Virus record (IMG/VR): IMGVR_UViG_3300044716_000883
Span: 32,001 to 96,000 of that record
DNA from: a virus
DNA length: 64,000 bases
Direction: 5' to 3' (one strand)
Shown: positions 1-13,950 of the stretch, piece after piece
Numbering within the stretch: position 1 is the stretch's first letter
How the letters are laid out: every line of letters starts with the position of its first letter
Position numbers and translations under genes: made by a program
The notes under the pieces: generated by a model
Database searches by the model: none
Seen by the model: only the letters and a program-made list of their open reading frames with translations
Told to the model about the DNA's origin: nothing

Positions 1-18
1 AATCCCTGAGCTTCCGCA
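1..18 (+). tRNA. 3' fragment of a tRNA truncated by the window edge (possibly tRNA-Ser)
   Basis: AATCCCTGAG-CTTCCG looks like the end of a T-loop, T-stem 3' strand and acceptor 3' strand; lies just before tRNA-Gln. Confidence 0.45.
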
Positions 19-21
19 AAC

Positions 22-92
22 TGCCCTTTAGTATAACGGTAGTACGACAGTTTTTGGTACTGTTTGTTGAGGTTCGAATCCTTGAGGGGCAA
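22..92 (+). tRNA. tRNA-Gln(UUG)
   Basis: Acceptor TGCCCTT/AGGGGCA; anticodon arm ACAGT-TTTTGGT-ACTGT; GGTTCGAATCC T-arm; CCA not encoded. Confidence 0.92.
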
Positions 93-123
93 CATTAGAT
101 TATTATCTTAAAAATAAAAAATT

Positions 124-351
124 ATGTTTTGGACAATTTACGCAATAAGCGTTATTTATTGCTTTTATCAATTAGTAAAACGCTACAGAGCAACTGACTT
201 AAGAGGTGGTGGATTAGATTCAGCCCCAGGATTAGATGGAGTTATGGTACTTTTCCTAGCACCAGTATTAGCTGTAGTTGACGTTACTTTAACTTGGATA
301 AGAATTTATAAAGAAGCTGAAGAAGCAAGACGAAGAAACAATACACTGTAG
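124..351 (+). CDS. small membrane protein, hypothetical
   Basis: 75 aa ORF with two hydrophobic segments; A-rich leader. Confidence 0.65.
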   Translation: MFWTIYAISVIYCFYQLVKRYRATDLRGGGLDSAPGLDGVMVLFLAPVLAVVDVTLTWIRIYKEAEEARRRNNTL

Positions 352-505
352 GGTGGCGGAATAGAGGTAGCTCCTCGTGGCAGACGTGCCCTCTCGTCTA
401 GGGGGTGCTGATCAGAGACAGATGTAAGATATGGGTTGACCACAAAGCCGGCTTATTTGTCTTACATTGAATCGCAGCGTGCTGGTTCAACCCCAGCCCC
501 TACAG
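347..505 (+). ncRNA. oversized tRNA-like RNA (class II scaffold, GUC at anticodon position, D-loop and variable-arm insertions)
   Basis: Acceptor TGTAGGG/CCCTACA+G; TGGCGGAA...GGCAGACGTG D-arm; CCCTC-TCGTCTA-GGGGG arm; 75-nt paired variable arm; GCTGG-TTCAACC-CCAGC T-arm. Confidence 0.75.
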
Positions 506-510
506 CAAAT

Positions 511-596
511 GCCTTGGTGGTGAAATAGGTAGACACGCAGGACTTAAAATCCTGTTCGCAGCAATGCGAGTGCGAGTTCGATTCTCGCCTGAGGCA
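511..596 (+). tRNA. tRNA-Leu(UAA)
   Basis: GCCTTGG/CTGAGGC acceptor; CAGGA-CTTAAAA-TCCTG anticodon arm; long variable arm TCGCA-GCAA-TGCGA; A73. Confidence 0.95.
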
Positions 597-611
597 CAAA
601 TAATTATATAC

Positions 612-944
612 ATGGCATGTCACTGCTTATACTTGAAAAATTCAGATGAATTTTACTCATTATTAAAGAGTAGAGATTCAGATATGATCATGAAGATGGT
701 CAAATGTGTACTTAGTGCAGCTAAACGAAATAAAAAAACCATCGATATATTTGATATCACGTTCAAAAATACAGATGGTTTGATTTTTACTATTGATAAA
801 TCGCAGTATACCGAATTATTAAGCAACTGCCTAAACGATCTAATCGCACTTGAAGAATACGAATTGTGCGCTGAGATCAAGAAATTTATTGATAAGAAAT
901 CAAAAAGTAAAAAATCAGGGGATGTCCAGGTATTTGATCTATAA
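612..944 (+). CDS. hypothetical protein with UVR-like C-terminal motif
   Basis: Start moved to ATG 612 because the ORF-track start lies inside tRNA-Leu; LEEYELCAEIKK resembles a UvrB/C helix pair; last codons overlap the tmRNA. Confidence 0.65.
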   Translation: MACHCLYLKNSDEFYSLLKSRDSDMIMKMVKCVLSAAKRNKKTIDIFDITFKNTDGLIFTIDKSQYTELLSNCLNDLIALEEYELCAEIKKFIDKKSKSKKSGDVQVFDL

Positions 945-1283
945 TCTGGAGGTAGTACCACACGCGGACAAAGCATGAATGTCCTTAAACCCTTGCGAAA
1001 CAATAACTGTAGAATTATCTACTATGACCTTCGACGACATGATGTCTTTCGTAGGTGCGAACGAGTACGCATTAGCGGCTTAATTAGCGTCGGGTGTAAC
1101 ATCCTAGGAACAGAAGTTACAAGCAGTTTACCCAAACGTTAAATGGGTTGGTGGAACGCTATACTAACCATATGGCCCCAATTCTTTTGGAACAGTAGTA
1201 AGATTAAACTGTTAAACTAAGCGTGTGAGACGTTGGTATTATTGTTCGTTATAGAGACACCGGTTCGACTCCGGTCATCTCCA
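918..1283 (+). ncRNA. ssrA: tmRNA; tag ORF 1009-1083 VELSTMTFDDMMSFVGANEYALAA*
   Basis: Acceptor GGGGATG/CATCTCC with G3.U70 and A73; ACCGG-TTCGACT-CCGGT T-arm; ATAACT upstream of resume codon; tag ends YALAA-stop. Confidence 0.93.
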
Positions 1284-1289
1284 CAACTT

Positions 1290-1317
1290 AAAGCAACCGT
1301 AACTGGTTGCTTTTTTT
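1290..1317 (+). terminator. intrinsic terminator after tmRNA
   Basis: AAAGCAACC-GTAACT-GGTTGCTTT followed by T run. Confidence 0.8.
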
Positions 1318-1321
1318 CATC

Positions 1322-1329
1322 ATATTTAT
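1322..1329 (+). promoter_or_regulatory. ATATTTAT putative late-promoter box (first of at least 15 intergenic copies)
   Basis: Same octamer at 12269, 15351, 17671, 30122, 31013, 32345, 35170, 38425, 44320, 49764, 52301, 55708, 58504, 59703, 60680, mostly shortly upstream of start codons. Confidence 0.65.
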
Positions 1330-1353
1330 AGGTAACCATTATAAATTAAAAAG

Positions 1354-2004
1354 ATGAAACAAAAAATTAGTGCTATCGCCATAGGCATGCGCGACAAATT
1401 AGTACTGGGTTTTTTTATGCTTGTTGGAGTCATTATTATGGCTGCCCTAGTAGCTCAGTTGTACTTCGTATATTGTGAGATTTTCAAATCACACGAAGAA
1501 AACCTACAAATGGTTAATGAAATTAACTGGAAAATTGACGGTAGGTGGAAAAACGACCCAAACAACATTTGGTATAACGCAGATGAACATATCTGGGTTC
1601 AAAGCGTAACTAACAAAGTAGTTATCGGTAAATTAGCAGGTAACCGCAACTTAGAGTTCGGTGTTAAAAACGTACTAGAAGAGTACTTACAAGAAAAAGG
1701 ATTAAACCTATCCCCAGATGCTGAACAAAAAATTAAAGTAGAAATCATTTATTTAGATGTTTTAACTACTAAGAAAAATGTGTCTGTATTTCATAAAAAC
1801 GAACAAGAAGTCGTTATTCGCTTAAAAGGTATACTATACAAAGACGGTATTAAAGAGAAAGAGGTAATAGTTGAAGAATCATCATCTGAAATCTCTATGT
1901 CAACTCTAATAGTAGATGAAGGTGGTAAATTCAACCAAACAAGCTTAAGTAATGCACTTAAGAAGGGTTGTGATAAATTAATCACAAAACTATTAGAAAA
2001 ATAA
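1354..2004 (+). CDS. membrane-anchored exported protein (LptE/DUF4410-like alpha/beta domain, tentative)
   Basis: N-terminal hydrophobic helix then soluble domain; first gene of envelope operon. Confidence 0.5.
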   Translation: MKQKISAIAIGMRDKLVLGFFMLVGVIIMAALVAQLYFVYCEIFKSHEENLQMVNEINWKIDGRWKNDPNNIWYNADEHIWVQSVTNKVVIGKLAGNRNLEFGVKNVLEEYLQEKGLNLSPDAEQKIKVEIIYLDVLTTKKNVSVFHKNEQEVVIRLKGILYKDGIKEKEVIVEESSSEISMSTLIVDEGGKFNQTSLSNALKKGCDKLITKLLEK

Positions 2005-3633
2005 ATGAAAAAACTATTACTAATTATTGGGATACTAATAGTATCCATAACAACTAATGCTCAGATAGTTGTAAACCAATCTATTTCTGCTGGACCTTAT
2101 AAAGTAGGTGATACAGTTACTGTAACTTATACAGTTGATAAGGGTATAACTAAACCACGTTATTTCTGGTTAAGATACCAATTTAACAATAAGGCTTTAA
2201 CTTATTTATCAACTACATTCTCACAGGGTAGTCAAGCTCAAACATTCTATACTGGTTGGACTAACTATAGATTTACACCTAAATCAAATATAAGCGATAC
2301 ATCGCTGTATGGTCAGTATCAAGCTACACCTTGGTCGTATGCTGTAAACGCAGATTGGAATGTTGGACAATTAGCAATCCAAAGAGCAGACAGAAGTATA
2401 GATGGTATAATAGCAACTCAAAGATATATTCTTAAAGACCAAAATGTATATGAGAATTTTCATGATTTAGATTTATCATATGCGTTAGACAGTGCAACTG
2501 GTAATAATATTCCGTTTGTTAGAACAACTGCTGTTCCTTTATCAATTACTGGAGTAAGTGGTAATACATCTTTCTTTAAAGTAAGAGTATTATTTCCATC
2601 TGGATACAATATCAGTGATCATTCAGTTCAGTTAATGAGATTAAAAACTGATGGTAGTGGTGATATTGATTGGTCACAACAACCAATTTTACAGAAAGCA
2701 TTAGATGCTAGTGGTGAGGCTATATTCACAACAGGTGTTAAAGTTGGTGATTCGTTAGGTGTATTCGTTGGAAACGCATCATCTAAAAGCTGGATGAATA
2801 ATGTAATAACTGTATCAGATGCATATAGAGCATTTTTAGGACATTCTCAAACTGATATAGCAGGTAATAGTACATTCTTTACAAGACCTACACTTGAAAG
2901 AAGAATTGGTAATGTGACTAGAAACGATATGACATTTACTGAAGCAGATGCTTATTATTCATTTGCACACGTAATGGGAATTGATGTATCTGCTAATGCT
3001 TTCATTCCAACATCAACATCTACATCTTGGAGATGGCATAGTGGATTATTAAATCAAAGTTGGTTAGATGGTACTTCAAGATATAGAGTGTATATTACTC
3101 AACCTGCACAAACAGTAGATGCTGTATTTGCTTGGGGTGGTGACTTAGATTGGTCACATTCATCTCATCCTGATACAATCGCTGCAAGAATATCAAGTGG
3201 TGTATTTACAAATAGTACAGGTGAAACTATAAAAATTGGTACTATGTCTTACAAAGCACCAGTACTAGAGAAAGCAACATTAAGTTTAACCTCAGCAATT
3301 GAAAATAACAAAGTAACATTATCAGCAAACTTAACTAAAGCGGATTTAGCTGGTTTAGAAGTAATTATGCAATATGATAGTACTAAATTAACATTAACAG
3401 ATGTTATATTTGATGCTGGTAGCACAATTACAAATTTCTCAACACACAATGATGGTAGATTAACATTTGGTTCTATTGATCAATTAAAGACAGCTAGAAT
3501 TAAAGTTGGTACTCCATATAAATTAATATTCACGCCTAAAGTACCTTTAAGTAACACTGCAGGTTTATTCTATACAGTATTAGCAGATGCAGTTGATGCG
3601 ACTGGTAAAAAGATAGAATTAATAGTTGAATAG
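2005..3633 (+). CDS. secreted protein with dockerin-like and C-terminal cohesin-like domains
   Basis: Sec signal MKKLLLIIGILIVSITTNA-Q; ITVSDAY...GNVTRND.TFTEADAYY dockerin-like; LAGLEVIMQYDSTKLTL cohesin-like. Confidence 0.65.
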   Translation: MKKLLLIIGILIVSITTNAQIVVNQSISAGPYKVGDTVTVTYTVDKGITKPRYFWLRYQFNNKALTYLSTTFSQGSQAQTFYTGWTNYRFTPKSNISDTSLYGQYQATPWSYAVNADWNVGQLAIQRADRSIDGIIATQRYILKDQNVYENFHDLDLSYALDSATGNNIPFVRTTAVPLSITGVSGNTSFFKVRVLFPSGYNISDHSVQLMRLKTDGSGDIDWSQQPILQKALDASGEAIFTTGVKVGDSLGVFVGNASSKSWMNNVITVSDAYRAFLGHSQTDIAGNSTFFTRPTLERRIGNVTRNDMTFTEADAYYSFAHVMGIDVSANAFIPTSTSTSWRWHSGLLNQSWLDGTSRYRVYITQPAQTVDAVFAWGGDLDWSHSSHPDTIAARISSGVFTNSTGETIKIGTMSYKAPVLEKATLSLTSAIENNKVTLSANLTKADLAGLEVIMQYDSTKLTLTDVIFDAGSTITNFSTHNDGRLTFGSIDQLKTARIKVGTPYKLIFTPKVPLSNTAGLFYTVLADAVDATGKKIELIVE

Positions 3634-3634
3634 T

Positions 3635-5908
3635 ATGAAACAAATATTAGTTACATTATTCTTATTGATATCATTTTTAGGGTTCGGACAGAGTGTATCT
3701 GCTCCGGACTCTAAATCGTTCTTACCTTCTACAGCAGGGCAAGATGCTAGTGGGTTTAGTTTAAGTGGTTTTAGCTCAACTGCTAATTTACTAGCATCAA
3801 TCAGTTTAGTTAATCCACCAACTGGTACAACATTTAACCTAACTACAACAACAGGTCTAACCGCAGCAAGTGGATTCACTTTAGCAGGTAATAAAACTCG
3901 TTTAGTGGTAACAGGAACAATGGCTAATATCAATACGGCATTAGCATCTCTAAAAGTAAACACAGGTTCGGTAAGAGGTAATGTTCAATTATCGGTAGCA
4001 GCAACTGTAAACCCAACTGGTTTCTTTTACAATGGAACAAACGGACACTTTTATAGACCAATATCAACAACGGCAACTTATACAGGAGCAAGAGCGGCCG
4101 CTGAATTAACAACATTCAAAGGCCAGCAAGGATATTTAGTAACAATAACTTCAGCCGATGAAGATGCTTTTATTTTTAATAATGTACCACAAGGTAATAT
4201 TTGGTTTGCATTAACCGATGAAGCAAGTGAAGCAAGATGGACAATTGATGCAGGTCCTGAAAAAGGAACTTTAATTAAAATCAATAATGGTCAATTAAAT
4301 GGAAACATACCAGGTCAATACAATAACTGGGCACCTGGTGAACCGAACAATAGTGGTAATGAAGATTACGCAGTAACTAAATGGAGTGGTGGTTCTCAAT
4401 GGAATGATTTACCAAATGGTTTTTGGAATCCTTATGTAATTGAATATGGAACTTGGACTAATCCTGATGATGCTACATTCACTGAATTCTATACTAATAG
4501 TGTAACACACTCAAATGGTGAAGTATTAACAGCACGCTTTAATTTTGATTTTGGAGGTAATGTAGATGAAACTAGATTCTCAACTAAAGCAAATACATTT
4601 GTAAACAATACTTGGAATGAAGTAAGTAGTATAACTAGACCATTAAGTGGTTTAGGTAAAGTGGATGCAACGAGCCTATTAGATACCCTAAAAGTTAATG
4701 ATGGTATTAAAGCAACTATAGTACCAGGACAAGTAGAATGGTCACTTATAAACCCATATGAAACATCAAGAAACGGACATAGATTGCAAATCGATGAAAG
4801 AGTATTTAGTGGGACTGGTATTAACTTAAACACAGTAAAATATGTAAAGTTATTTGATATATACGAAGGTCCAATCGCACCAATGGATTTTAATGGATGG
4901 TGGAAACAATGGGTAGTACCTGGAAATGTTAATTTGGCTAGTAAAGTAACAGCAAGTTCATTTCAAAATAATATACGATTACAAGATGGGTGGTATGCAT
5001 TTAGAGCAGATTATTCATTTGCACCAAATACAATGTTTAAACAACATGGTATTGAATTAACAACTAATCAAACTGATTTAAATACATTATATAATAGTAT
5101 AGTAACTGTATCAGATGTGTTTATAGCATTTAAAGAATTATCAAATGGTGGTATATTCGGAAATGAAACTGGTAATGAGTTTGCGTATGGTATTCAATAT
5201 ATGAATGCTGATGTTGATGGCAATGGTGTATTCAATGAAGCAGATACTTATAGACTATTACAACATTTAACAGGAGTAAAATCACTTACAGAATATTCAA
5301 CATTAACGTACTTAATGAAATTGTATGGTAAATCGGATTACGACGCTATAACTAAATCAAATTGGAATACACAGTTTAACTATACAAGAAATTTATACCC
5401 ATTCAGCCTAAATACAGGTACACTTAACAACACTTACAATATAGATGTAACTTGGGTTGGTGATGTAAACTTATCCCACTCAGCAATACCTGCTTCAAAT
5501 AACGTAACAATTATGTCTGTAGGTACTACATCTGTACCAAATGAAATTAACGCTTCAATTGTTACTGAGGTAAGTGATAAAATATATGCTTACATTACTT
5601 TAGACCCACTACAACAACAAGTAGTGGGAACCCAATTCCAATTAAATTATGATAATTCAGTATTGAAATTTGAAGGTGTAGAATTTAAAACTAAGGGTAG
5701 TCCAATGAACTATGGTACTAATAAAAATAGCTTTATAAATTTAGGCTCACTAATTAGTGATGGTAGTACTACATTAGATAATACTACTGAATATAAAATA
5801 ACATTCACATCAACAACTAAACTTGATAATATATTAGGTTTAATATCAATAGGTGCTACTGATGCCGTTAATAAAGCAGGCGTACAATTAAAAGTTAAAG
5901 TAAAATAA
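3635..5908 (+). CDS. secreted C-type lectin / dockerin-like / cohesin-like protein
   Basis: Signal peptide; NGHFY..GYLVTITSADE..WAPGEPNN..EDY..WND lectin motifs; ADVDGNGVFNEADTYRLLQHLTG dockerin-like; VVGTQFQLNYDNSVLKF cohesin-like. Confidence 0.75.
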   Translation: MKQILVTLFLLISFLGFGQSVSAPDSKSFLPSTAGQDASGFSLSGFSSTANLLASISLVNPPTGTTFNLTTTTGLTAASGFTLAGNKTRLVVTGTMANINTALASLKVNTGSVRGNVQLSVAATVNPTGFFYNGTNGHFYRPISTTATYTGARAAAELTTFKGQQGYLVTITSADEDAFIFNNVPQGNIWFALTDEASEARWTIDAGPEKGTLIKINNGQLNGNIPGQYNNWAPGEPNNSGNEDYAVTKWSGGSQWNDLPNGFWNPYVIEYGTWTNPDDATFTEFYTNSVTHSNGEVLTARFNFDFGGNVDETRFSTKANTFVNNTWNEVSSITRPLSGLGKVDATSLLDTLKVNDGIKATIVPGQVEWSLINPYETSRNGHRLQIDERVFSGTGINLNTVKYVKLFDIYEGPIAPMDFNGWWKQWVVPGNVNLASKVTASSFQNNIRLQDGWYAFRADYSFAPNTMFKQHGIELTTNQTDLNTLYNSIVTVSDVFIAFKELSNGGIFGNETGNEFAYGIQYMNADVDGNGVFNEADTYRLLQHLTGVKSLTEYSTLTYLMKLYGKSDYDAITKSNWNTQFNYTRNLYPFSLNTGTLNNTYNIDVTWVGDVNLSHSAIPASNNVTIMSVGTTSVPNEINASIVTEVSDKIYAYITLDPLQQQVVGTQFQLNYDNSVLKFEGVEFKTKGSPMNYGTNKNSFINLGSLISDGSTTLDNTTEYKITFTSTTKLDNILGLISIGATDAVNKAGVQLKVKVK

Positions 5909-6243
5909 TGAAAAAATTACTATTCATATTATTACTATTATCAGCTTGTAAAAAGGTAGACGTACCACCACAACCACCAACGGTACAGGATATATTCAGC
6001 GTTGCTGAATCTACTGTGTCTAATGGTGGAGATATTTACTTTGATTTGAAAGCAGCAGGTACATATACCTTAACAATGTTAGACCAAACCCAAAACGTAA
6101 TCACAAGGGAGCGTATTAGTGGTAAAGTTGGCCAAAACAAATTAAAAATATACACTAGTTCGCTACCAGTTAAATATTTATATCTAGTACTGGAAGACCA
6201 ATCCCGTACTCAAATAGGTAAAACCGCCATTAAAATTAATTAA
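5908..6243 (+). CDS. lipoprotein with T9SS C-terminal-sorting-domain-like fold
   Basis: Lipobox LSAC; GTYTLTMLDQTQNVI...TSSLPVKYLYLVLED pattern. Confidence 0.55.
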   Translation: MKKLLFILLLLSACKKVDVPPQPPTVQDIFSVAESTVSNGGDIYFDLKAAGTYTLTMLDQTQNVITRERISGKVGQNKLKIYTSSLPVKYLYLVLEDQSRTQIGKTAIKIN

Positions 6244-6254
6244 AGATGAACGCA

Positions 6255-6620
6255 ATGAAGAAAATATTAGCAGTTGCAGCTATCCTATTTGTAGGATGTA
6301 CTAAAGTGGATGTACCAACACCACAACCCCCAGTAACAAACGCTGAATTAAAAATAACTAGCGCAGTAGGTATTAAATTACAATCACCATTCGTAACAAA
6401 CGAAGTTGCTATGAATGTTAAAAGTGATGTAGCGCAGTCAGTTACAATTAGAATATTTGATATCTCAAACAGAGTAGTATCAAAAGAAACAGTAAACGTA
6501 ATCGTTGGTGATAATATCTTAAAAGTATACACATCAGCATTACCACCATCAGCGTACAGAATTGGATTATTCGATGCTAATGGTAATCAATTAGGAATCA
6601 CAGATTTTAACAAACTATAA
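6255..6620 (+). CDS. lipoprotein with T9SS C-terminal-sorting-domain-like fold (paralog of previous gene)
   Basis: Lipobox FVGC; VTIRIFDISNRVV...TSALPPSAYRIGL pattern; shared KKVDVP-P/Q-rich linker. Confidence 0.6.
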   Translation: MKKILAVAAILFVGCTKVDVPTPQPPVTNAELKITSAVGIKLQSPFVTNEVAMNVKSDVAQSVTIRIFDISNRVVSKETVNVIVGDNILKVYTSALPPSAYRIGLFDANGNQLGITDFNKL

Positions 6621-6632
6621 AAATTAAATAAC

Positions 6633-6941
6633 ATGTCAGAAGAAGTAGAACAAGAATCAACTGGTAAATCGTTTAAAAACATTATCATTGGTCTAGTTAG
6701 TACAGTTACACTAGGTGTAGGTGGATTTATTACTAACAAATTAACAGGTGGTGGTGATGAAGCAGCTCCTGCACCAGCAGCAGCTCCAGTAATTAACATT
6801 ACTAACAGCAACCAACAACAACAAGCAGCAGGTGGTAAAACTGTAATCATTAAAGAGAAAGCAGCAGAACCAGCTAAACCAGCAGCTCCAGTTAAGAAAA
6901 AAGACGGTGACGAATTTAAAGAAAAAGAACCACAGTGGTAA
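6633..6941 (+). CDS. single-pass membrane protein with Pro/Ala-rich tail
   Basis: IIIGLVSTVTLGVGGFI helix; APAPAAAP linker. Confidence 0.65.
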   Translation: MSEEVEQESTGKSFKNIIIGLVSTVTLGVGGFITNKLTGGGDEAAPAPAAAPVINITNSNQQQQAAGGKTVIIKEKAAEPAKPAAPVKKKDGDEFKEKEPQW

Positions 6942-6958
6942 TTTATAAAAAATAAAGT

Positions 6959-7567
6959 ATGCAACCAAATACAGGATTTAGAGAACTATTAAATAAAATG
7001 ATGTCCCGCAGATGGTACATCACAGCTATGGTATTAGGTGGATTCATTGTAATCATTGCTGGTATATTCGCAGCAATCAGTTTACAAACACCAATGGCCG
7101 CAGCATGGAAAGAATTATTAATGTTATTATTAGGTGCCTTCATTGGTAGCTATGGTAAAATCATCGACTACTGGTTCAGTGATACTGACAAAGATAAAAT
7201 GTTAGTACAGAAAATGGATGAAGAAGATGGTGTAGCACTAGGTAGTGTTAATGACATTAAAGAATCAAACAAACCATTTACTCCATTAATTCCAGATGCT
7301 TTCGTAGCAGGTGCAGCAGCCGCTAGAGATTTAGCTGTAGTTGAAAACAAACAAAACTTTGAATTAGCTGCTGATCAACAAGAACATGATCAAAAGTTAG
7401 AAGCTGACCAACAAGAGCACGAGCAGGAAATGGCTAAATTAAAATTAGAACACGAACTTAAAGCACATAGATATTGCGAACATGAATGGGGTGACTCAGA
7501 CAATGATGGTGAACTAGAATGCCAAAAATGTGGTCTATTAAAAGATGCTTACGACGAATCTCACTAA
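6959..7567 (+). CDS. two-TM membrane protein (holin-like N-terminus) with coiled coil and Cys/His tail
   Basis: Two TM helices ending LLGAFIGSYGKIIDYWFS; repeated ADQQEH; C-terminal CEHEW...CQKC. Confidence 0.55.
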   Translation: MQPNTGFRELLNKMMSRRWYITAMVLGGFIVIIAGIFAAISLQTPMAAAWKELLMLLLGAFIGSYGKIIDYWFSDTDKDKMLVQKMDEEDGVALGSVNDIKESNKPFTPLIPDAFVAGAAAARDLAVVENKQNFELAADQQEHDQKLEADQQEHEQEMAKLKLEHELKAHRYCEHEWGDSDNDGELECQKCGLLKDAYDESH

Positions 7568-7585
7568 CCATTAAAAATTAAAAGT

Positions 7586-7825
7586 ATGAATTTCAAACAG
7601 TGGGTTATTGATCTATTCAAAGATGAAAGAGGATCAACTTCAGTAAAACCGGTTATCGCGTTTGTAGGTGCAATGTTTTTATGTGTAACAATGATGTTAA
7701 ATTCATTTTCACATGCAGATTTTGCTCCATCAGCAGAACTAGTAAATGCAGTAATGATTATTACTGGTATTGGAATGGGTGCTGATACATTTGACAAATT
7801 CTCTCATAAAAAGAAAGAAGATTAA
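7586..7825 (+). CDS. small two-TM membrane protein (holin candidate)
   Basis: Two hydrophobic helices and a charged C-terminus. Confidence 0.5.
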   Translation: MNFKQWVIDLFKDERGSTSVKPVIAFVGAMFLCVTMMLNSFSHADFAPSAELVNAVMIITGIGMGADTFDKFSHKKKED

Positions 7826-7835
7826 AAACAAAACT

Positions 7836-7861
7836 AAAGGGAACTTCGGTTCCCTTTTTTT
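7836..7861 (+). terminator. intrinsic terminator
   Basis: AAAGGGAAC-TTCG-GTTCCCTTT plus T run. Confidence 0.8.
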
Positions 7862-7876
7862 AAATCAAATTTATGT

Positions 7877-8593
7877 ATGAAAAATTTATTAATATTATTA
7901 GGTCTATTACTGACCATAAGTGCGGGTGCCCAAACTGTCGGATCAACGAAGACAGAGCAGTACAAAGCTTCATTCGAAACCAAAATAGACATTAGTCAAT
8001 TTTTAAATTATGAAGGCAAAACAATACCGATTCAGATTCTCAAATGCGGTATTGGTGATGATCTTTATGAGCAATATCCTGAACTCAAAGAAAAGAAAGT
8101 GGGTTTGGGTGTGGCTAACATCACGCTTGAATATCTTGAAAATCTTAACCGCTTTACATTTACAGAAGATAAAACAGAAATTAAAAACAGAATGGTAAAG
8201 CAATTCCAAGCATCACAAGCTGGAATTAGCCAAGATAAATTAGATGGTAGAGGTAAGATTAGATTAGCTCATTACTTCGTTGAAATTGAAGTATACGATT
8301 GGTCAGTTTCAGATGACGAAGAAGTAAACTTAAAAGACGGAGTTAAAAATACAATGGTTACACGTTTAGGCTTACAAGTACGCTTTACAGATGCTGAAAC
8401 AGGAGAAATTATAGCAGCATCTGGTTTAGGTGAAGCTAAAACAACAAGAGAATTAACATTATTATCTGACGCAACAATAGATCCAGTTAAATTTAATCAA
8501 TCAACAGTTAGTATTGCGACTAAAAAAGCATTAGACATTGCTTGTGCTCGTATATTACCTCGTATGATTAAAAAGGGTGTATTTCCAAACTAA
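7877..8593 (+). CDS. CsgG/HfaB-like exported protein
   Basis: Signal peptide; LGVANITLEYL..NRFTFTE..; RLGLQVRFTDAETGEIIAASGLGEA typical of the CsgG family. Confidence 0.7.
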   Translation: MKNLLILLGLLLTISAGAQTVGSTKTEQYKASFETKIDISQFLNYEGKTIPIQILKCGIGDDLYEQYPELKEKKVGLGVANITLEYLENLNRFTFTEDKTEIKNRMVKQFQASQAGISQDKLDGRGKIRLAHYFVEIEVYDWSVSDDEEVNLKDGVKNTMVTRLGLQVRFTDAETGEIIAASGLGEAKTTRELTLLSDATIDPVKFNQSTVSIATKKALDIACARILPRMIKKGVFPN

Positions 8594-8598
8594 TTAAA

Positions 8599-8706
8599 AT
8601 GGGAACAAAAGCAAAAAAGAAAAGAGCAATGAGATCTAGAAAATCTGGACTTAAAACAGTAGCTCAAATAAGCAAAAATTTAGCAATCCTTTCAAAACTA
8701 AAGTAG
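8599..8706 (+). CDS. 35-aa basic peptide (not in ORF track)
   Basis: MGTKAKKKRAMRSRKSGLKTVAQISKNLAILSKLK* fills the intergenic gap. Confidence 0.45.
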   Translation: MGTKAKKKRAMRSRKSGLKTVAQISKNLAILSKLK

Positions 8707-8707
8707 T

Positions 8708-9535
8708 ATGAAAAACTTATTATTTTTATTAGTATTTCTTCCAACATTAGCTTTATCACAAGTTAGCACTTGGAGAGGTGCTACGTCAACACCTAGAGTA
8801 TCAACACAATCATTTCAACAATCAACTCCACAGCGAAATGTTAGTAGCTGGAGAAACGAATCACCAAGAGAATTTAATAGACCTGCAAGAACAAGATCAG
8901 GCTCAAATATTATTGTTAATGATCCTTGGTTAGGTAATAACTGGGGTTGGGGATGGAATAGATGGGATATGTGGGGTGCACCAGCATTTGGTTGGAACTT
9001 TTGGCAACCAATGTGGTACTGGAATGATTGGGGTTATAGACAACCTGCAAGAATCTATGTATATGATAATGGCAAGAGAGATACTATTAAAGGCAAAAAA
9101 CCAATTATCAGCTTTGGTATTCAGGGAACAACAGATGATCAAGTGGGTGGTTTCTTTACAATAGGAAATAAAGGATACTTTATAGTAGAATATACAGCAA
9201 GTAATCTAAGAGATAACTCAACATTCTTTCCTTTTGGAAATATAGCTCAAGTTGATTTTCCAATGGTAAACGACTTAGTTCAAAGACAGAGCTTTTATGT
9301 TGGTGTAGGTAAGCGAATTAAAAGAACAGGTATCCATATGATGATTGGAACTGTAAGTGAAGACGCTAAATGGAGAGGTAAAGATGATTTAGGTTACATA
9401 ACATTTCCTAAGTACTTAGATAGATTTACAACAGTAAAAATAGGTGCACTACACGACTATAAAAATTTTACAATAAAGTTTGATTATGACCCAATAATCA
9501 ATAATAGAACTTTTGGATTGGGTGTTAATTTCTAA
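8708..9535 (+). CDS. outer-membrane beta-barrel protein with Trp/Gly/Asn-rich N-terminal region
   Basis: Signal peptide; alternating beta strands; terminal FGLGVNF (BAM-type C-terminal Phe). Confidence 0.7.
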   Translation: MKNLLFLLVFLPTLALSQVSTWRGATSTPRVSTQSFQQSTPQRNVSSWRNESPREFNRPARTRSGSNIIVNDPWLGNNWGWGWNRWDMWGAPAFGWNFWQPMWYWNDWGYRQPARIYVYDNGKRDTIKGKKPIISFGIQGTTDDQVGGFFTIGNKGYFIVEYTASNLRDNSTFFPFGNIAQVDFPMVNDLVQRQSFYVGVGKRIKRTGIHMMIGTVSEDAKWRGKDDLGYITFPKYLDRFTTVKIGALHDYKNFTIKFDYDPIINNRTFGLGVNF

Positions 9536-9536
9536 A

Positions 9537-10988
9537 ATGAAAAAATGGTTAGTAAGTATATTATTAATCGTTATATGTTTATTCGCTAAGATAGCGAACG
9601 GACAAGTTTACACTCAAACATTCATTGACAAATGCACTGGTCAAACCAAAGTAGCTACAACTACAATGGTTAACGGAAACGCTATCGTTTCATTCTATGG
9701 TCAAATTAAGACATTTACTCCAGCGCAAGTAACAAACGGAGAATTACAAGCTTGGCTTCAAGCAACGTATGTATCCTACAATTCACTAGCATGTCCAGTA
9801 TCAACTCCCGTAGTAACACAGACAGTGACTCAGGCAGTGTCGCAGGCAGCATCACAAGCAGCATCATCAGCAGCAAGCTCAGCAGCGTCATCAGCCGCTT
9901 CATCAGCAGCCTCAAGCGCAGCAAGTGGAGCAGCTTCAGGAGCAGCAAGCGGAGCCGCAAGTGGAGCAGCATCAAGCGGAGCAGCAGCTTCAAGTGGCGC
10001 TTCAGCCTCAAGCGGTACAGCAGCATCCTCGAGTGGATCTTCATCCCAATCATCATCGGGTTCGTCCTCGTCTTCATCTTCTGGTTCGTCATCCTCATCT
10101 GGGGAATCGTCTTCATCAAGCTCATCTGGAAGCAGCAAAAGCGAAAGCAAATCAGAGACAAAATCAGAATCAAAGAGCGAATCTAAATCTGAAAGTAAAA
10201 GCGAATCTAAAGAAGAAAAGAAATCAGAAACTAAAGAGGAAAAAAAAGAGGAGAAGAAAGAAGAATCTAAAGAGGAAAAAAAGGAAGAGAAAAAAGAAGA
10301 TAAGAAAGAAGACAAAAAGGATGATAAGAAACAAGCCAAAATGAATCCTATAATGATAGGTTCAGATCTAACTGTAGCACAAAATCCTACAGGTGGATTC
10401 ACACCAATCATATCATTAAGTATGTCTCAAGCATCTGCTACAGGCGAATCAAGTTGGGGTATATCAAGTATGGTATGGGCTGATTTAAAGTCATTCGCTT
10501 TATCTGCGAATAAAAGCGATATGAACTTTAAGAACGGAGTACTCAAATCAATAGATGCTTATTCATATACCGTTGCTTACGTCGCAGGTACGCATATGAC
10601 TTTTGGTGGTTATACTCACATTATACCACATCCAAAATATGGTACGTTCGGCTATAACTTATCTGTTATTAATATTAAATTGAAAGAAGCTGTTGGTTAC
10701 TCATATTCAATGATGTCATCAACAACAGCATTCTGGACTAAACCATATCAAATAAGCAGAAAATCAACATTATCTCCAGGTGTATTCTTAATGGCGTCGC
10801 CATACACGTACAACAGCAAATCAGGCAGTACATGGAATTACAATGTAATGGGTTTGGTGGGCACAGGATATAGTTTTAAATTGAGTAAACGATTTGGGTT
10901 TAATATTGACTATAAAGCAAGCTTATCAACAGTACCAGGTACACCAATACTTAGCTTCTTCCTTGTAGGTTCAAGATTACAACTATAA
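9537..10988 (+). CDS. exported protein: Ala/Ser-rich and EKKEE-rich stalk plus C-terminal beta-barrel-like domain
   Basis: Signal peptide; AASSAA/SSGSS/SKSE/EKKEE low-complexity tracts; amphipathic strands ending GSRLQL. Confidence 0.65.
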   Translation: MKKWLVSILLIVICLFAKIANGQVYTQTFIDKCTGQTKVATTTMVNGNAIVSFYGQIKTFTPAQVTNGELQAWLQATYVSYNSLACPVSTPVVTQTVTQAVSQAASQAASSAASSAASSAASSAASSAASGAASGAASGAASGAASSGAAASSGASASSGTAASSSGSSSQSSSGSSSSSSSGSSSSSGESSSSSSSGSSKSESKSETKSESKSESKSESKSESKEEKKSETKEEKKEEKKEESKEEKKEEKKEDKKEDKKDDKKQAKMNPIMIGSDLTVAQNPTGGFTPIISLSMSQASATGESSWGISSMVWADLKSFALSANKSDMNFKNGVLKSIDAYSYTVAYVAGTHMTFGGYTHIIPHPKYGTFGYNLSVINIKLKEAVGYSYSMMSSTTAFWTKPYQISRKSTLSPGVFLMASPYTYNSKSGSTWNYNVMGLVGTGYSFKLSKRFGFNIDYKASLSTVPGTPILSFFLVGSRLQL

Positions 10989-10989
10989 A

Positions 10990-11021
10990 TTTGGGTTGGG
11001 CAAAATTTTAACGTATATTTA
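10990..11021 (+). promoter_or_regulatory. early-type promoter motif TTTG-N4-GGGCA-N10-GTATATTTA (first of about 27 copies)
   Basis: RGGCA box recurs at 12512, 16388, 16836, 18469, 19494, 19970, 20476, 20775, 21034, 21945, 23190, 24632, 25534, 25741, 26021, 26668, 27485, 27809, 28085, 50541 and others, each followed after 10-11 nt by RTAKATTYA. Confidence 0.8.
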
Positions 11022-11056
11022 TTCTCGCTTAATTAATTAACAAAAACACAATTATT

Positions 11057-11218
11057 ATGAAAAAAGCAACATTAGTATTCGTAGTAGCATTAACATTAGC
11101 TGCTTGCGGAACTGGAAACACTGAGACTGTAGCAACTGATTCAACTGCTGTGTCTGCTGATACTACTGCTGTAGTAGCTGCTGACTCGACGAGTGTTGAT
11201 TCAACTACTACTAAGTAA
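11057..11218 (+). CDS. 53-aa lipoprotein with D-S/T-T repeats (not in ORF track)
   Basis: MKKATLVFVVALTLAA-C lipobox; DST, DTT, DST, DST. Confidence 0.8.
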   Translation: MKKATLVFVVALTLAACGTGNTETVATDSTAVSADTTAVVAADSTSVDSTTTK

Positions 11219-11270
11219 TGATCGTGGCCTGTCTTTTGGACGGGCCAACTTTCTGCTTTAAATTAACATT

Positions 11271-11636
11271 ATGTATAAGATTAAGAACAAAATAAGACAA
11301 ATACGTAAATTAATACGTTGGATACCTATCTTATGGAGAGATAGAGATTGGGATTATTATTTTGTTTATGAAATATTAAAACAAAAATTAATTGATACTG
11401 AAAAGTATATTCGTAGAGATGGTTTACATGTATTTAATGAGCACGATGCTGATAGTATTAAAACAGCAATCGAAATGATAGAGAAAGTACAAACTGAATA
11501 TCATCTTGATAAATACTTATCAGAAGCAACTGAGTGGACTACTGAGGGAATGAATAAAGCTATAAAGGATCATAATAAAGCTAAACAAGAATTATTCAAA
11601 TATCTAAACAATAACATTGAAAAATGGTGGGACTAG
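11271..11636 (+). CDS. hypothetical phage protein
   Basis: 121 aa ORF with A-rich leader. Confidence 0.7.
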   Translation: MYKIKNKIRQIRKLIRWIPILWRDRDWDYYFVYEILKQKLIDTEKYIRRDGLHVFNEHDADSIKTAIEMIEKVQTEYHLDKYLSEATEWTTEGMNKAIKDHNKAKQELFKYLNNNIEKWWD

Positions 11637-11854
11637 GTAAAAAATGTATTAAATGTTTACGTTGGTATCCTAAATTTATGTTTAGAAAGGATGGTAGGGT
11701 ATACCAAGTTGCAACTGAATTAGGTAAAGTTAGAACATGTAGAATATGTTCTTGGAAAGAATCAGGTAGAGATAGTGTTGTAAGATGGAATGGAACTAAA
11801 TTTGAAGTTGTAACTTTAACATTAAAGCAACGAATTAAAGAATTATTAGGATGA
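11624..11854 (+). CDS. small Cys-containing (zinc-ribbon-like) protein
   Basis: CIKC...CRIC. Confidence 0.5.
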   Translation: MVGLGKKCIKCLRWYPKFMFRKDGRVYQVATELGKVRTCRICSWKESGRDSVVRWNGTKFEVVTLTLKQRIKELLG

Positions 11855-11987
11855 TAGCACTAATTATATCAATTGCAGTAGCAACTATTATATCTATACT
11901 TTGGGTTAGAGGTATAGATAACATGAAACAAAATCCTGACTATAAGGGATACGATTTATTTGATGAAGAAGATAAAAACAATATAAT

Positions 11988-12248
11988 ATGAAACAATACA
12001 TTAGCCCAATATTAACAGCATGCTCATTAATTGCCCTGTTAACAACAATTTACTTTCAGAATGAAAGAGTTAATCAATTTAAATTTGAAGTAAAAACATT
12101 AAAATCAACAGCAGATAGTTTACACGATGAATTATTTATTAGACACGTTATAAATGAAAGATACGAGTTATCTCTAGATCATTTACAGAAAGTAAATCCA
12201 AATGCTGCTCTTGAGTTTGTAAATTTTATGAACCACGAGACTGAATAG
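11988..12248 (+). CDS. membrane-anchored hypothetical protein
   Basis: N-terminal hydrophobic helix plus coiled coil. Confidence 0.6.
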   Translation: MKQYISPILTACSLIALLTTIYFQNERVNQFKFEVKTLKSTADSLHDELFIRHVINERYELSLDHLQKVNPNAALEFVNFMNHETE

Positions 12249-12283
12249 TATCACTTCCTAATTAGCGTATATTTATATATGCT

Positions 12284-12511
12284 ATGATACGATACGCTAA
12301 ACATAATAATAAAGAATACATCGTAATAGATAGCTCGTTTGAAATTAACGGGCTAAAATCCCCACTGCACGTTCAAATTAATATTAATGGTTTTACTCAA
12401 GAGGAAAAAGACTTACTGTATAAAACATCTGCAGTAGCTTTTAATCGTCACATCAATTTCTCTAAAAAACCTACAGTAGCTCCTAAGAAACCTTGGTGGA
12501 ATATTTGGTGA
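12284..12511 (+). CDS. hypothetical protein
   Basis: ORF after ATATTTAT box; KKPWWNIW C-terminus. Confidence 0.6.
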   Translation: MIRYAKHNNKEYIVIDSSFEINGLKSPLHVQININGFTQEEKDLLYKTSAVAFNRHINFSKKPTVAPKKPWWNIW

Positions 12512-12539
12512 AGGCAAAACAATAGCTTAGATTTAAGCT

Positions 12540-13340
12540 ATGAAATTAGTAGTAATAGGCGATATTCATGGTCGTGATATATGGAAACAAATCGTAGCTA
12601 AAGAGCACGACGATACAGATGAATTTATATTTGTAGGTGATTACTTTGATTCATTTACAGTTAAAGGTCTAGACCAAATAAATAACTTTCTAGACATTAT
12701 TGATTTCAGAAACACATCTATATACCATAAAGTAACATTATTAATTGGTAACCACGATTATCATTATTACCCAGGTATTGAGGATAATGGCACCTCAGGC
12801 TACCAAACATTAATGGCGCCATCAATCAAACACGTAGTAAGCGAAAATAAACAATATCTACAAGCAGCTTATCAAGTTGACGAATTTGTTTTTACACACG
12901 CTGGATTAAGTAGTGAATGGTTAGATGATAATATTGTAATGTGGGATGTACCTAATTTAGCAATGTATGTTAATGATTTATTCTATTATCAACCTCAAAA
13001 ATTAGCTTATCGTTCATATAAACAAGTTGGAGATAAAGTATATGGAGTTGGTGGTTATGGTAATGAAACATTTCAGGGTCCACTTTGGATCAGACCTAAA
13101 GCATTAATGGCTGCTAATAAGTCTACTCAAGACGGTAAACTTACTAATAAAGAAACCCTTAAAAACCATATCATTCAGGTAGTAGGACATACACCACAAG
13201 ATACAATTGATATTAAAGGTAAATCTACTGGCGGTAGATATTACTTCATAGACACACTTGAATATGGACAAAATCAATATTTGGTGATCAAAGATGGAGT
13301 CGTATCTTTAGGAGAATTAAATAATAAAGATGAAAAGTAA
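12540..13340 (+). CDS. calcineurin-like metallophosphoesterase
   Basis: GDIHG, GDYFD, GNHD, THAG, GHT motifs. Confidence 0.9.
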   Translation: MKLVVIGDIHGRDIWKQIVAKEHDDTDEFIFVGDYFDSFTVKGLDQINNFLDIIDFRNTSIYHKVTLLIGNHDYHYYPGIEDNGTSGYQTLMAPSIKHVVSENKQYLQAAYQVDEFVFTHAGLSSEWLDDNIVMWDVPNLAMYVNDLFYYQPQKLAYRSYKQVGDKVYGVGGYGNETFQGPLWIRPKALMAANKSTQDGKLTNKETLKNHIIQVVGHTPQDTIDIKGKSTGGRYYFIDTLEYGQNQYLVIKDGVVSLGELNNKDEK

Positions 13341-13950
13341 ATTCTACATCAAGGATAAACGAACACTAAAACAGAAACTAACTGACTTTGGTCATAGTAT
13401 GTTGTTCTGGAGGGGTAGAAAGAAAGGTATGATTCATACTAGGAATATTACTTGGAATGATATTAGAGCTGTATTCTTCCCTAAGAACTTCTATGAAAAA
13501 TATCATTACTTAGGATCAGTTCCATATAATAAGTTAGGTCCTATTTTTGAAGCAATGGAGCCGTTAGTAATCTTTATGGATTATAAAGCAAAGCCTTGGT
13601 GGTGTCCTAGATGGTTTCTTAGATTCTTACATTTGTTTGGTGATGATAATTCAATAGTGAGAGTTAGGAATAGGTTTCTAAGCAATCTAAAATGCAAAAT
13701 CACAGGACACATTGCAATGATGGACTACAAAACCAAATGGACTGATTATGATTTAAGAATATCAGTTGTAGGAAATAGGCAAGTACAAAATTTAACTGAT
13801 GCTATTGAAGCTAGATACTATGAAGTAGGTTATAGAACAGACCTTGCAGATCAAATCAAAAAATTAGATCCAGATACGGTATATAATAGTGGTTATACAA
13901 TTAGTAGTATGAAAGCAGAATTAATGAGATTAGGACATGAAGAATATTAA
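13330..13950 (+). CDS. hypothetical protein
   Basis: 206 aa ORF overlapping previous stop. Confidence 0.65.
   Translation: MKSKFYIKDKRTLKQKLTDFGHSMLFWRGRKKGMIHTRNITWNDIRAVFFPKNFYEKYHYLGSVPYNKLGPIFEAMEPLVIFMDYKAKPWWCPRWFLRFLHLFGDDNSIVRVRNRFLSNLKCKITGHIAMMDYKTKWTDYDLRISVVGNRQVQNLTDAIEARYYEVGYRTDLADQIKKLDPDTVYNSGYTISSMKAELMRLGHEEY

Follow-up and report, generated by a model that had tools for sequence, protein, structure and literature searches.

The stretch of viral DNA analysed here (64,000 nucleotides, referred to as the window) spans bases 32001–96000 of the IMG/VR record IMGVR_UViG_3300044716_000883, a complete genome of 179,381 bp with direct terminal repeats. Near its start it carries two adjacent genes, P1 and P2, whose products both end in a dockerin-like unit followed by a cohesin fold, with a C-type lectin placed ahead of these in P2. 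Docking between cohesins and dockerins is known for holding together bacterial cellulosomes and a few other complexes of secreted enzymes. We read the pair as a cohesin-dockerin kit of the phage that would hold an exchangeable lectin in the envelope of an infected Flavobacteriales cell, and give this reading a probability of about one half. Support comes from the folds, motifs and signal peptides of the two proteins, their conservation, the coupling of their genes, and a split counterpart in Flavobacterium phage vB_FspM_immuto (immuto in the following), which is the closest cultured relative (44.9% identity across 99% of the baseplate wedge protein).

The P1 gene (2005..3633, plus strand) specifies 542 aa, laid out as a signal peptide, an N-terminal cohesin fold, a small beta sandwich, a dockerin-like unit, a linker and a C-terminal cohesin fold. 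P2 (3635..5908, plus strand) is built from a signal peptide, an N-terminal domain, the C-type lectin, a middle domain, a dockerin-like unit, a linker and a cohesin fold. It is 757 aa long from the ATG at 3635 and 760 aa long from a TTG at 3626; a database protein identical to P2 (P0001) starts at the ATG and has 757 aa, while P2 residue numbers are counted here from the TTG (760-aa numbering). The stop codon of P1 (TAG, 3631–3633) is followed one base later by the ATG of P2, and the two are a translationally coupled pair. In a scan of viral contigs, 281 stretches were confirmed and 80 loci kept; a P1-like gene lies directly upstream of a P2-like gene in 70 of these loci, the remaining 10 being cut by the contig end, and the gap between the two measures −8 to +4 nt in 69 of the 70 adjacent pairs. 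Homologues at E ≤ 1e-3 number 3406 for P1 (among 8000 scored candidates) and 2897 for P2 (among 7987), and the best 120 for P2 are full-length with 75–100% identity. Searches of PHROGs and NCBIfam gave no match for either protein, Protein Atlas, which contains no model of P1 or P2, returned for P1 only leads below 0.9 (dockerin, cohesin and CarboxypepD_reg clusters), and a sequence scan found no cysteine in P1 or P2.

Cohesin folds and dockerin-like units

P1 and P2 are alike only across their last ~280 residues (22% identity, BLASTP E 8e-10), and this shared module defines the family considered below. When the P2 module was the query of an exhaustive HMMER search, 145 cluster representatives matched at E ≤ 1e-3, and a hidden Markov model (HMM) of the module recovered 143 of these; the same HMM matches P1 over aa 260–541 (i-E 3.1e-59). 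The end of the module is reached in 131 representatives, and the protein stops no more than 5 aa later in 123 of them and no more than 16 aa later in the other 8. Since 131 of 131 end within 16 aa, the module is always C-terminal and no secretion tail follows it. Its most conserved residues are those of a calcium loop, a GDxxxSHS motif and the core of the cohesin. Elsewhere in the genome no further dockerin, cohesin or copy of the module was found. An AlphaFold2 (AF2) model of P2 aa 480–760, made with 78 sequences, has a mean predicted local distance difference test (pLDDT) of 93.2 and a predicted template modelling score (pTM) of 0.89.

The C-terminal domain of P2 (5543..5905, plus strand; aa 640–760, model residues 161–281) was compared with solved structures by two routes. 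Foldseek found 69 PDB chains at E ≤ 1e-3, and among those listed all are cohesins or cohesin-like (best 2jh2_A, 2e-7). In the VIA comparison with 48,161 PDB representatives, ranks 1–19 are cohesins (Z 14.2–10.2), the best rows superposing with a root mean square deviation (rmsd) of 2.0–2.5 Å over 118–124 residues, and the Ig-like domains of pilins and adhesins rank lower. A prediction made earlier for this DNA (the original prediction) had called the domain cohesin-like and had asked whether it might turn out to be a generic Ig fold. With solved cohesins ahead of other beta sandwiches at the top of both structural rankings, the domain, as modelled, has a true cohesin fold and not a generic Ig fold. 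The Pfam Cohesin model (PF00963, cut-off 24.1 bits) scores 18.1 bits on P1 (E 0.0032, aa 440–491) and 22.3–23.5 bits on P2 (E 1.6e-4), and it matches 36 of 78 family members at E ≤ 0.01, the best at 3.3e-10. The corresponding domain of P1 (3268..3630, plus strand; about aa 422–542) is taken as cohesin-like by homology to the P2 cohesin.

P1 carries, in addition, a head that the AF2 model (aa 21–262, pLDDT 92.7) resolves into two parts, an N-terminal domain (2065..2559, plus strand; about aa 21–185) and a small beta-sandwich spacer (2560..2769, plus strand; about aa 186–255, with DSSP strands at model residues 171–235). Ranks 1–15 of the VIA comparison are again cohesins (Z 13.2–11.5, model range 1–165), with an rmsd of 2.1–2.6 over 126–131 residues in the single-cohesin rows. 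The best Foldseek match (9.4e-6) is 2w1n, a cohesin+FN3 construct of Clostridium perfringens GH84C, and spans the double module. In P1 orthologues the cohesin half of the module HMM also matches aa 33–91, weakly but repeatedly. As modelled, the N-terminal head of P1 is a second cohesin fold, which was absent from the original prediction and is new here. Two cohesin folds together with one degenerate dockerin-like unit make P1 resemble an adaptor scaffoldin.

The dockerin-like unit, together with an extension that follows it, occupies 2770..3162 in P1 (plus strand; about aa 256–386) and 5066..5482 in P2 (plus strand; aa 481–619). The P2 unit has a canonical calcium loop, DVDGNGVFNEAD (aa 529–540, nt 5210–5245, plus strand), followed by the helix TYRLLQHL, whereas the P1 loop reads NVTRNDMTFTEAD and is degenerate. 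With a canonical loop defined as D or N at positions 1 and 3, D, N or S at position 5, and D or E at position 12, this second loop is canonical in 38/46 P2-like members and in 5/27 P1-like ones. Loop 1 is canonical in none of the 78 members, which retain only its distal part (..T-V-S/T-D and a helix), and in the AF2 model a helix occupies its place. The type I dockerin (PF00404) is defined by two tandem F-hand repeats, each a 12-residue calcium-binding loop with a helix after it, so that the unit is not a full dockerin. The Dockerin_1 model scores 12.8 bits on P2 (E 0.14) and 17.1 bits in a six-frame search (E 0.001) against a cut-off of 22.9, and reaches E ≤ 0.01 in 3/78 family members. A search of all PDB sequences with the family profile (E ≤ 10) gave 30 matches, comprising 18 dockerins, 9 cohesins, 2 serine-protease entries and caltractin; the solved dockerins were matched at E values from 8.2e-4 (6kg9_A, the best) to 1.2, mostly over one repeat. 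Helices assigned by DSSP lie at module residues 16–27, 43–49 and 59–70, an order that would fit the helix, linker helix and helix of the three-helix dockerin fold.

The extension is ~85 residues long, of alpha/beta type, and closes with the most conserved motif of the module, which is GDVNLSHS in P2 (aa 612–619) and GDLDWSHS in P1 (aa 379–386). In the form GD[VI]N[LM]SHS it is present in 120/120 P2-like proteins, and GDLDWSHS in 120/120 P1-like ones. To judge from these sequences, the dockerin-like unit probably consists of one calcium-binding F-hand loop and an extension ending in GDxxxSHS. The motifs that the original prediction had quoted were all recovered (VITVSDAY and NVTRNDMTFTEADAYY in P1; VTVSDVF, DVDGNGVFNEADTY, NWAPGEPNN at aa 234–242 and WND at aa 259–261 in P2). 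Its statement that each chain bears both dockerin-like and cohesin-like parts is upheld, the former as a dockerin-like unit and the latter as a true cohesin fold.

Unit and cohesin are joined in P2 by a linker (5483..5542, plus strand; aa 620–639) that is the one stretch where the confidence of the model drops (block pLDDT 73 and 65). The pTM of 0.89, obtained for two subdomains across this linker of ~20 residues, argues for a fixed arrangement, and the model implies that the dockerin-like unit is packed onto its own cohesin as one rigid body. Some family members depart from the common build. Among P0362 (669 aa), P0268 (638 aa) and P0378 (376 aa), one has the 'middle domain' inside the dockerin-like unit, and others lack a cohesin and stop soon after GDxxLSHS, perhaps as split forms or because the gene calls are truncated.

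The C-type lectin, other heads and export signals

The lectin of P2 lies at 4031..4465 (plus strand; about aa 136–280) and has the EPN motif at 4340–4348, Glu246, and the WND motif at 4400–4408. The calcium and sugar ligands (E239-P-N241, E246 and W259-N-D261) align with those of surfactant protein D (SP-D), which a phmmer search of the PDB with P2 found at 1.2e-4 with EPN and WND in register. With 21.3 bits (E 4.9e-4), P2 falls just short of the Lectin_C (PF00059) cut-off of 22.6, and many P2 orthologues carry a precomputed PF00059 match. The profile of the P2 family matches CD23 at 2.7e-9, and the 60 PDB rows listed for it are all C-type lectin-like domains (CTLDs). P2 shares 36% identity (E 3e-20) over its lectin with immuto gp013, itself a Lectin_C match of 57.3 bits. 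Among close homologues, WND is kept in 120/120 and GEPN in 119/120. The EPN/WND C-type lectin of the original prediction is upheld by this canonical site, which both the profile and the SP-D alignment recover, and the site predicts calcium-dependent binding of sugars of the mannose, glucose, GlcNAc or fucose type.

Animal carbohydrate-recognition domains (CRDs) of the EPN class, such as those of mannose-binding protein, SP-D, DC-SIGN, langerin and CD23, are matched by the family profile at 2.7e-9 to 1e-3. In P2 the EPN, Glu and WND ligands align with theirs, as does a WIGL-like core that reads WFALTD. CTLDs of animals have two conserved disulfide bonds; the P2 lectin, with 0 Cys, has neither, nor is there a neck or collagen region, and the sugar specificity of P2 is a prediction from its site residues. 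C-type lectin folds of phages are often targets of diversity-generating retroelements. The P2 lectin is an unlikely target of this kind, being a canonical CRD with invariant site residues (no search for a reverse transcriptase was made).

Two further domains flank the lectin. The N-terminal domain of P2 (3692..4030, plus strand; about aa 23–135) is conserved in orthologues and belongs to no Pfam, PHROG or NCBIfam family, nor does it have a PDB match among the 60 family-profile rows listed. The middle domain (4466..5065, plus strand; about aa 281–480) can be aligned in relatives headed by PA14 (P0241, P0243 and P0244); Pfam and PDB profile searches assigned it to no family, and Protein Atlas gave no usable match. 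When 78 members of this family were scanned, PA14 heads appeared in 19 and GLEYA heads in 17, Lectin_C and fn3 in 3 each, and LCCL in 2, a distribution in which the C-terminal module appears as the constant part and the mostly sugar-binding heads as exchangeable ones.

Both proteins begin with a signal peptide, read from the sequence. That of P1 (2005..2064, plus strand; aa 1–20) is MKKLLLIIGILIVSITTNA followed by Q, with cleavage between TNA and Q, and that of P2 (3635..3691, plus strand) is MKQILVTLFLLISFLGFG followed by Q, with cleavage between GFG and Q. Glutamine is almost invariant at the P1 cleavage column of the alignment, and a regular-expression search found it at +1 in 118/120 P2-like and 111/120 P1-like homologues; the misses are upstream-extended or truncated open reading frames (ORFs), and the N-termini mostly show the same site. 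The sequence ..GFGQSVSAP occurs in 120/120 close P2 homologues (118 by regular expression and 2 by inspection of the N-termini). The presence of glutamine directly after the cleavage site, or Q-rule, is retained in 69/75 long cluster representatives (regular expression), and signal peptides with Gln after cleavage are also present in ORFs 7877, 8708 and 9513. One report describes the Q-rule as specific to substrates of signal peptidase I in Bacteroidetes (PMC5837995), and another notes that proteins from Porphyromonas gingivalis phages show it (PMC10367356). P1 and P2 would accordingly be exported via Sec, and the 'secreted' label of the original prediction agrees with the predicted signal peptides, cut before Gln and conserved in orthologues.

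A type IX secretion system (T9SS) tail was sought as well. P1 and P2 gave no Por_Secre_tail match at E ≤ 1, none of 78 family members gave one at E ≤ 0.01, and CHU_C (PF13585) gave no match in the genome. In the whole genome the sole Por_Secre_tail match is a lipoprotein at 6246..6620 (E 0.014, below the cut-off). P1 and P2 resemble the T9SS cargo of Bacteroidota (PF18962/TIGR04183) in their Q-rule Sec signal, their multi-domain, adhesin-like build and their terminal beta sandwich. They differ in having neither Por_Secre_tail nor CHU_C and in ending with a cohesin fold of ~120 aa, whereas immuto gp015 is by Pfam a bona fide member of this cargo.

The split counterpart in immuto and the proposed working of the pair

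Immuto (NC_055915) has three adjacent genes at 10527–13422 (locus L087), gp013, gp014 and gp015, all with Q-rule signal peptides and annotated as 'lectin C-type domain-containing', 'hypothetical' and 'cohesin domain-containing', respectively. The gp013 protein combines a C-type lectin (Lectin_C 3e-15) with a dockerin-like unit that has the canonical loop DVNNDSRFTVSD, and its C-terminus reads ..YYITRVGYNN. The gp014 protein has a P1-like start, a dockerin-like calcium loop and an extension, with the C-terminus ..LLVLGDVNGTGLN. In gp015 a cohesin (5.9e-9) stands beside a Por_Secre_tail (2.4e-8), and the Pfam matches of gp013 and gp015 are all over the cut-offs. The G(D/Y)xN motif is the exact end of both gp013 and gp014, and from this point P1 and P2 run on through SHS and the linker into the cohesin. 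Of 20 immuto-like viral loci (L090–L109), 18 retain all three genes and the other 2 are cut. Heads of gp013-like proteins are C-type lectins in 8/11, one with a large insertion; the 3 others differ, and one of them looks PA14-like.

Profile comparisons by hhalign linked the cohesin of the module to the alignment of gp015-like proteins (probability 78.6%, E 1.7e-5), the P1 family to that of gp014-like proteins (88.7%, E 2.6e-6) and the dockerin-like part of the module to that of gp013-like proteins (70.3%, E 4e-5). Family profiles set against single immuto proteins gave 5–80%, and BLASTP of P1 with gp014 reached only E 0.005. In the immuto clade the same parts appear, by sequence, to be spread over three genes, a split that the original prediction did not contain: the first joins a lectin to a dockerin-like unit, the second is an adaptor with a cohesin head, and the third combines a cohesin and a T9SS tail. 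Where one clade exports as separate proteins what another clade has fused, the parts would be expected to interact, which here applies to the dockerin-like units and the cohesins, and the T9SS tail of gp015 points to the cell surface as their site, at least in the immuto clade. The two phages belong to the same broad group and have in common the Q-rule export, an EPN/WND lectin, a dockerin-like loop, a related cohesin and varying heads. They differ in that the immuto cohesin is a separate, T9SS-tailed gene, while the window fuses a cohesin to each dockerin-like unit and has no T9SS tail. A literature search (titles and abstracts) found no published discussion of gp013–gp015.

In the most likely mechanism, P1 and P2 would be exported by the host Sec machinery into the envelope, where their dockerin-like units would dock onto cohesins, either within one chain or between P1 and P2, and the docked complex would keep the exchangeable, sugar-binding head of P2 in the envelope of the infected cell. 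P2 would be the working head, and P1, with its free N-terminal cohesin, an adaptor-like partner. As to purpose, masking or binding of host surface glycans, superinfection exclusion, or sticking of infected cells to polysaccharide are candidates, and guesses. For P1 and P2 themselves, export, docking, location, sugar binding and purpose are what we infer from the observations above. A bolder version, which we hold as a possibility rather than an expectation, is a 'lectinosome', a cellulosome-like kit belonging to large phages of Flavobacteriales, in which the adaptor P1 and the head-swappable lectin P2 assemble by docking and give the infected cell a new sugar-binding surface. That in some clades this assembly hangs on a T9SS-exported cohesin, with uses such as masking the phage's own glycan receptor or tethering the cell to polysaccharide particles, belongs to the same version, which remains doubtful as a whole.

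Several points weigh against the reading of the pair as an envelope-held lectin kit. Neither a T9SS tail nor a lipid anchor or barrel was found in P1 or P2 that could take them beyond the periplasm. The Pfam scores of the window's own P1 and P2 are all below the gathering score, the dockerin-like unit has only one canonical calcium loop, with that of P1 degenerate, and the profile matches that connect it with the immuto trio are weak (70–89%, and 5–80% for single sequences). If the dockerin-like units are satisfied in cis, as the model suggests, they need no assembly in trans, and the free cohesin of P1 has no partner found in the genome. The only RNA evidence consists of contigs of relatives from one library that may hold DNA, and such contigs cannot show transcription.

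The original prediction had gone on to head-to-tail polymerisation, the cohesin of one chain binding the dockerin-like unit of the next to give a multivalent sugar-binding filament or lattice. Each chain does have both modules, the linker of ~20 residues could favour swapping, and an AlphaFold monomer cannot separate a cis contact from a domain-swapped trans one; P1, with one more cohesin than it has dockerin-like units, would even allow branching. Having both modules on one chain does not, however, imply a polymer, given the rigid-body model and the one canonical calcium loop; cellulosomal adaptor scaffoldins, whose chains likewise combine cohesins with a dockerin, are not known to polymerise. 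AlphaFold predicts the module as a single compact body (pTM 0.89 across a 20-residue linker), which makes self-capping in cis at least as likely as a head-to-tail polymer. Calcium loops of the P1 type are mostly degenerate, and the parts in immuto are an anchor, an adaptor and a head, not a self-complementary monomer. We therefore consider a filament or lattice improbable. About equally improbable, in our estimate, is that P1 and P2 are independent glycan binders of the periplasm or envelope, serving, for example, superinfection exclusion, receptor masking or lysis timing, with the module as a stalk that does not dock. The two have signal peptides but no feature that targets the outer membrane, the dockerin signature is degenerate, lipoproteins and barrel-like proteins are among the neighbours, and receptor-masking envelope proteins encoded by phages are known (Llp of T5). 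Against this stand P1, which has no lectin head and only cohesin folds, the peaks of conservation at the calcium loop, GDxxxSHS and the cohesin core, and the split into separate exported parts in immuto, which is hard to explain if they do not interact.

The terminal cohesin fold could also be a sorting signal, read by the T9SS or another exporter, and not a socket for dockerins. This would suit its extreme C-terminal position in 131/131 representatives that reach the module end, the invariant motif and flexible linker ahead of it (as before a cleaved sorting domain), the probably T9SS-bearing Flavobacteriales hosts, and the best viral structural match, A0A6J5M064 (E 7e-13), which is named 'Secretion system C-terminal sorting domain'. 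Yet Por_Secre_tail is missing from P1, P2 and their family at the thresholds given above, cohesins fill the top structural ranks with no T9SS C-terminal domain among the 50 matches listed, and in the model the domain packs against the dockerin-like unit; in immuto gp015, moreover, cohesin and T9SS tail are separate, adjacent domains. A sorting signal is accordingly a slim prospect. Slimmer by far are the chances that P1 and P2 are virion adhesins, as decoration or fibres, with an N-terminal hydrophobic stretch that is not a working signal peptide. Many virions are decorated by lectin-like and Ig-like domains, and the heads differ between related phages in the manner of receptor-binding proteins. 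But both families have typical signal peptides with conserved Q-rule sites, no PHROG structural family matches P1 or P2, and the cohesin of immuto bears a T9SS tail. The genes also lie ~30 kb from those for baseplate and fibres, amid tRNAs and small early-type genes, and next to lipoproteins and barrel-like proteins.

The envelope-held lectin kit that we prefer has recognisable counterparts in cellular systems. The cohesin folds of P1 and P2 superpose at Z 12–14 on those of cellulosomal scaffoldins and of type I and II pairs (1ohz, 2b59, 3kcp, 4ums and 5nrk), and the F-hand loop with its helix, the presence of cohesin and dockerin-like unit on one chain, and the swappable cargo on a constant docking unit are all cellulosome-like. 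What sets P1 and P2 apart, and is unusual, is a viral origin in a Gram-negative (Bacteroidota) setting, a lectin or adhesin as cargo in place of an enzyme, and half a dockerin, with one canonical calcium loop instead of two and the ~85-aa GDxxxSHS extension. Their cohesin is fused, always C-terminal and predicted to be packed on its own unit, and SLH or sortase anchors are absent. Also related are the non-cellulosomal modules that join secreted proteins outside cellulose degradation, those of the C. perfringens GH84/GH33 toxin complexes (2jh2, 2w1n, 2o4e and 2vo8) and the cohesin of Archaeoglobus fulgidus (2xdh). They include the best Foldseek matches, which are 2jh2_A in the case of the P2 cohesin and, in that of the P1 head, 2w1n, whose cohesin likewise has a beta sandwich after it. 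These modules sit on cellular glycoside hydrolases, those of the window on enzyme-free, lectin-headed phage proteins.

A literature search limited to titles and the starts of abstracts found no publication on phage-encoded cohesin-dockerin proteins, while automatic annotations of the 'cohesin domain-containing protein' type exist in phage records. If real, a 'lectinosome' would be the first viral cohesin-dockerin system, and also the first to carry lectins rather than enzymes as cargo. Should docking take place in the way that the folds suggest, Flavobacteriales phages would be fitting the envelope of the cells they infect with a modular complex of lectins, a new kind of manipulation of the host by a phage, with consequences for adsorption, superinfection or attachment to particles. 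Genes of this family are very frequent in lake metagenomes, and with the cultured pair of immuto and Flavobacterium sp. LMO8, which carries the split kit, the idea can be put to a direct test. The parts may also yield useful tools, in the form of C-type lectins free of cysteine and possibly of orthogonal cohesin-dockerin pairs.

Phage, host and neighbouring envelope genes

Almost all long ORFs of the window are on the plus strand, and further downstream it contains matches to phage baseplate wedge, endolysin, primase and exonuclease families. The phage is probably a lake-water myovirus with hosts of the Flavobacteriales type. Its sequence is present in lake-water metagenomes; 7 runs contain at least half of the sampled words, and the lake-water runs come from 18 coded studies. 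A search for the module in 185,579 species genomes, made with one narrow pattern, found a single locus, on a 3.4-kb contig binned in a metagenome-assembled genome (MAG) of the Schleiferiaceae. This suggests, weakly, that the module is rare in cellular genomes, and the locus gives no more than a hint as to the host. Pfam Cohesin gave 2 weak matches, none above the cut-off, in 151 genomes of the order to which this MAG belongs, the likely host order, and for this reason the kit appears to be self-contained. In one wetland RNA library, which may contain DNA, contigs of relatives cover all 30 bins of window positions 1–12000. In lake-metagenome run X1, a DNA contig (depth 14.7) joins position 2004 to 6891 and omits P1, P2 and two lipoproteins; one side of the junction is 37 letters long and the contig was aligned at 85% likeness, so that it may represent a gene-less relative or an artefact and is too weak to claim a variant.

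P1 and P2 are part of a conserved block, the flanking genes that start at 1354, 5908, 6246, 6633, 6959 and 7877 recurring in 71–79 of 81 related loci. Directly after P2 come two paralogous small lipoproteins (5908..6243 and 6246..6620, plus strand), each with a ~90-aa body that is a T9SS-tail-like or DUF3244-like beta domain. Their Cys18 is invariant, and the pair is present in 78–79 of 81 related loci. Orthologues give sub-threshold matches to Por_Secre_tail in 31/55 (best 3.4e-4) and to DUF3244 in 30/55, and the two lipoproteins are the only sequences of the genome with any likeness, itself sub-threshold, to a T9SS sorting domain.

On the other side, P1 is preceded in 75/81 loci by an ORF (1354–2004, 216 aa) with an N-terminal membrane segment and a Lipoprotein_16 score of 24.6 bits against a cut-off of 25. 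The Pfam CsgG model has no match in the genome at E ≤ 10. Just upstream of the block of envelope proteins are genes for a tmRNA (918–1284, tag peptide ANEYALAA), tRNA-Gln(ttg) and tRNA-Leu(taa), the tRNA genes being at 22–93 and 511–597, and the tRNA-Leu region is 85.9% identical to the tRNA-Leu of Leptolyngbya phage Lbo-JY46. Downstream, the ORFs at 8708–9535 and 9513–10988 specify exported proteins with C-termini of the outer-membrane-barrel type (..FGLGVNF), for which no Pfam family was found. The second of these has, between its N-terminal domain and its beta-rich C-terminal part, a low-complexity stretch of ~170 residues that is rich first in Ser, Ala and Gly and then in Lys and Glu. In some relatives (9182–10069 of locus L014 and 8864–9757 of L028) a protein of ~295 aa is inserted after P2, and this too has a barrel-type C-terminus (..MIGTNFQF).

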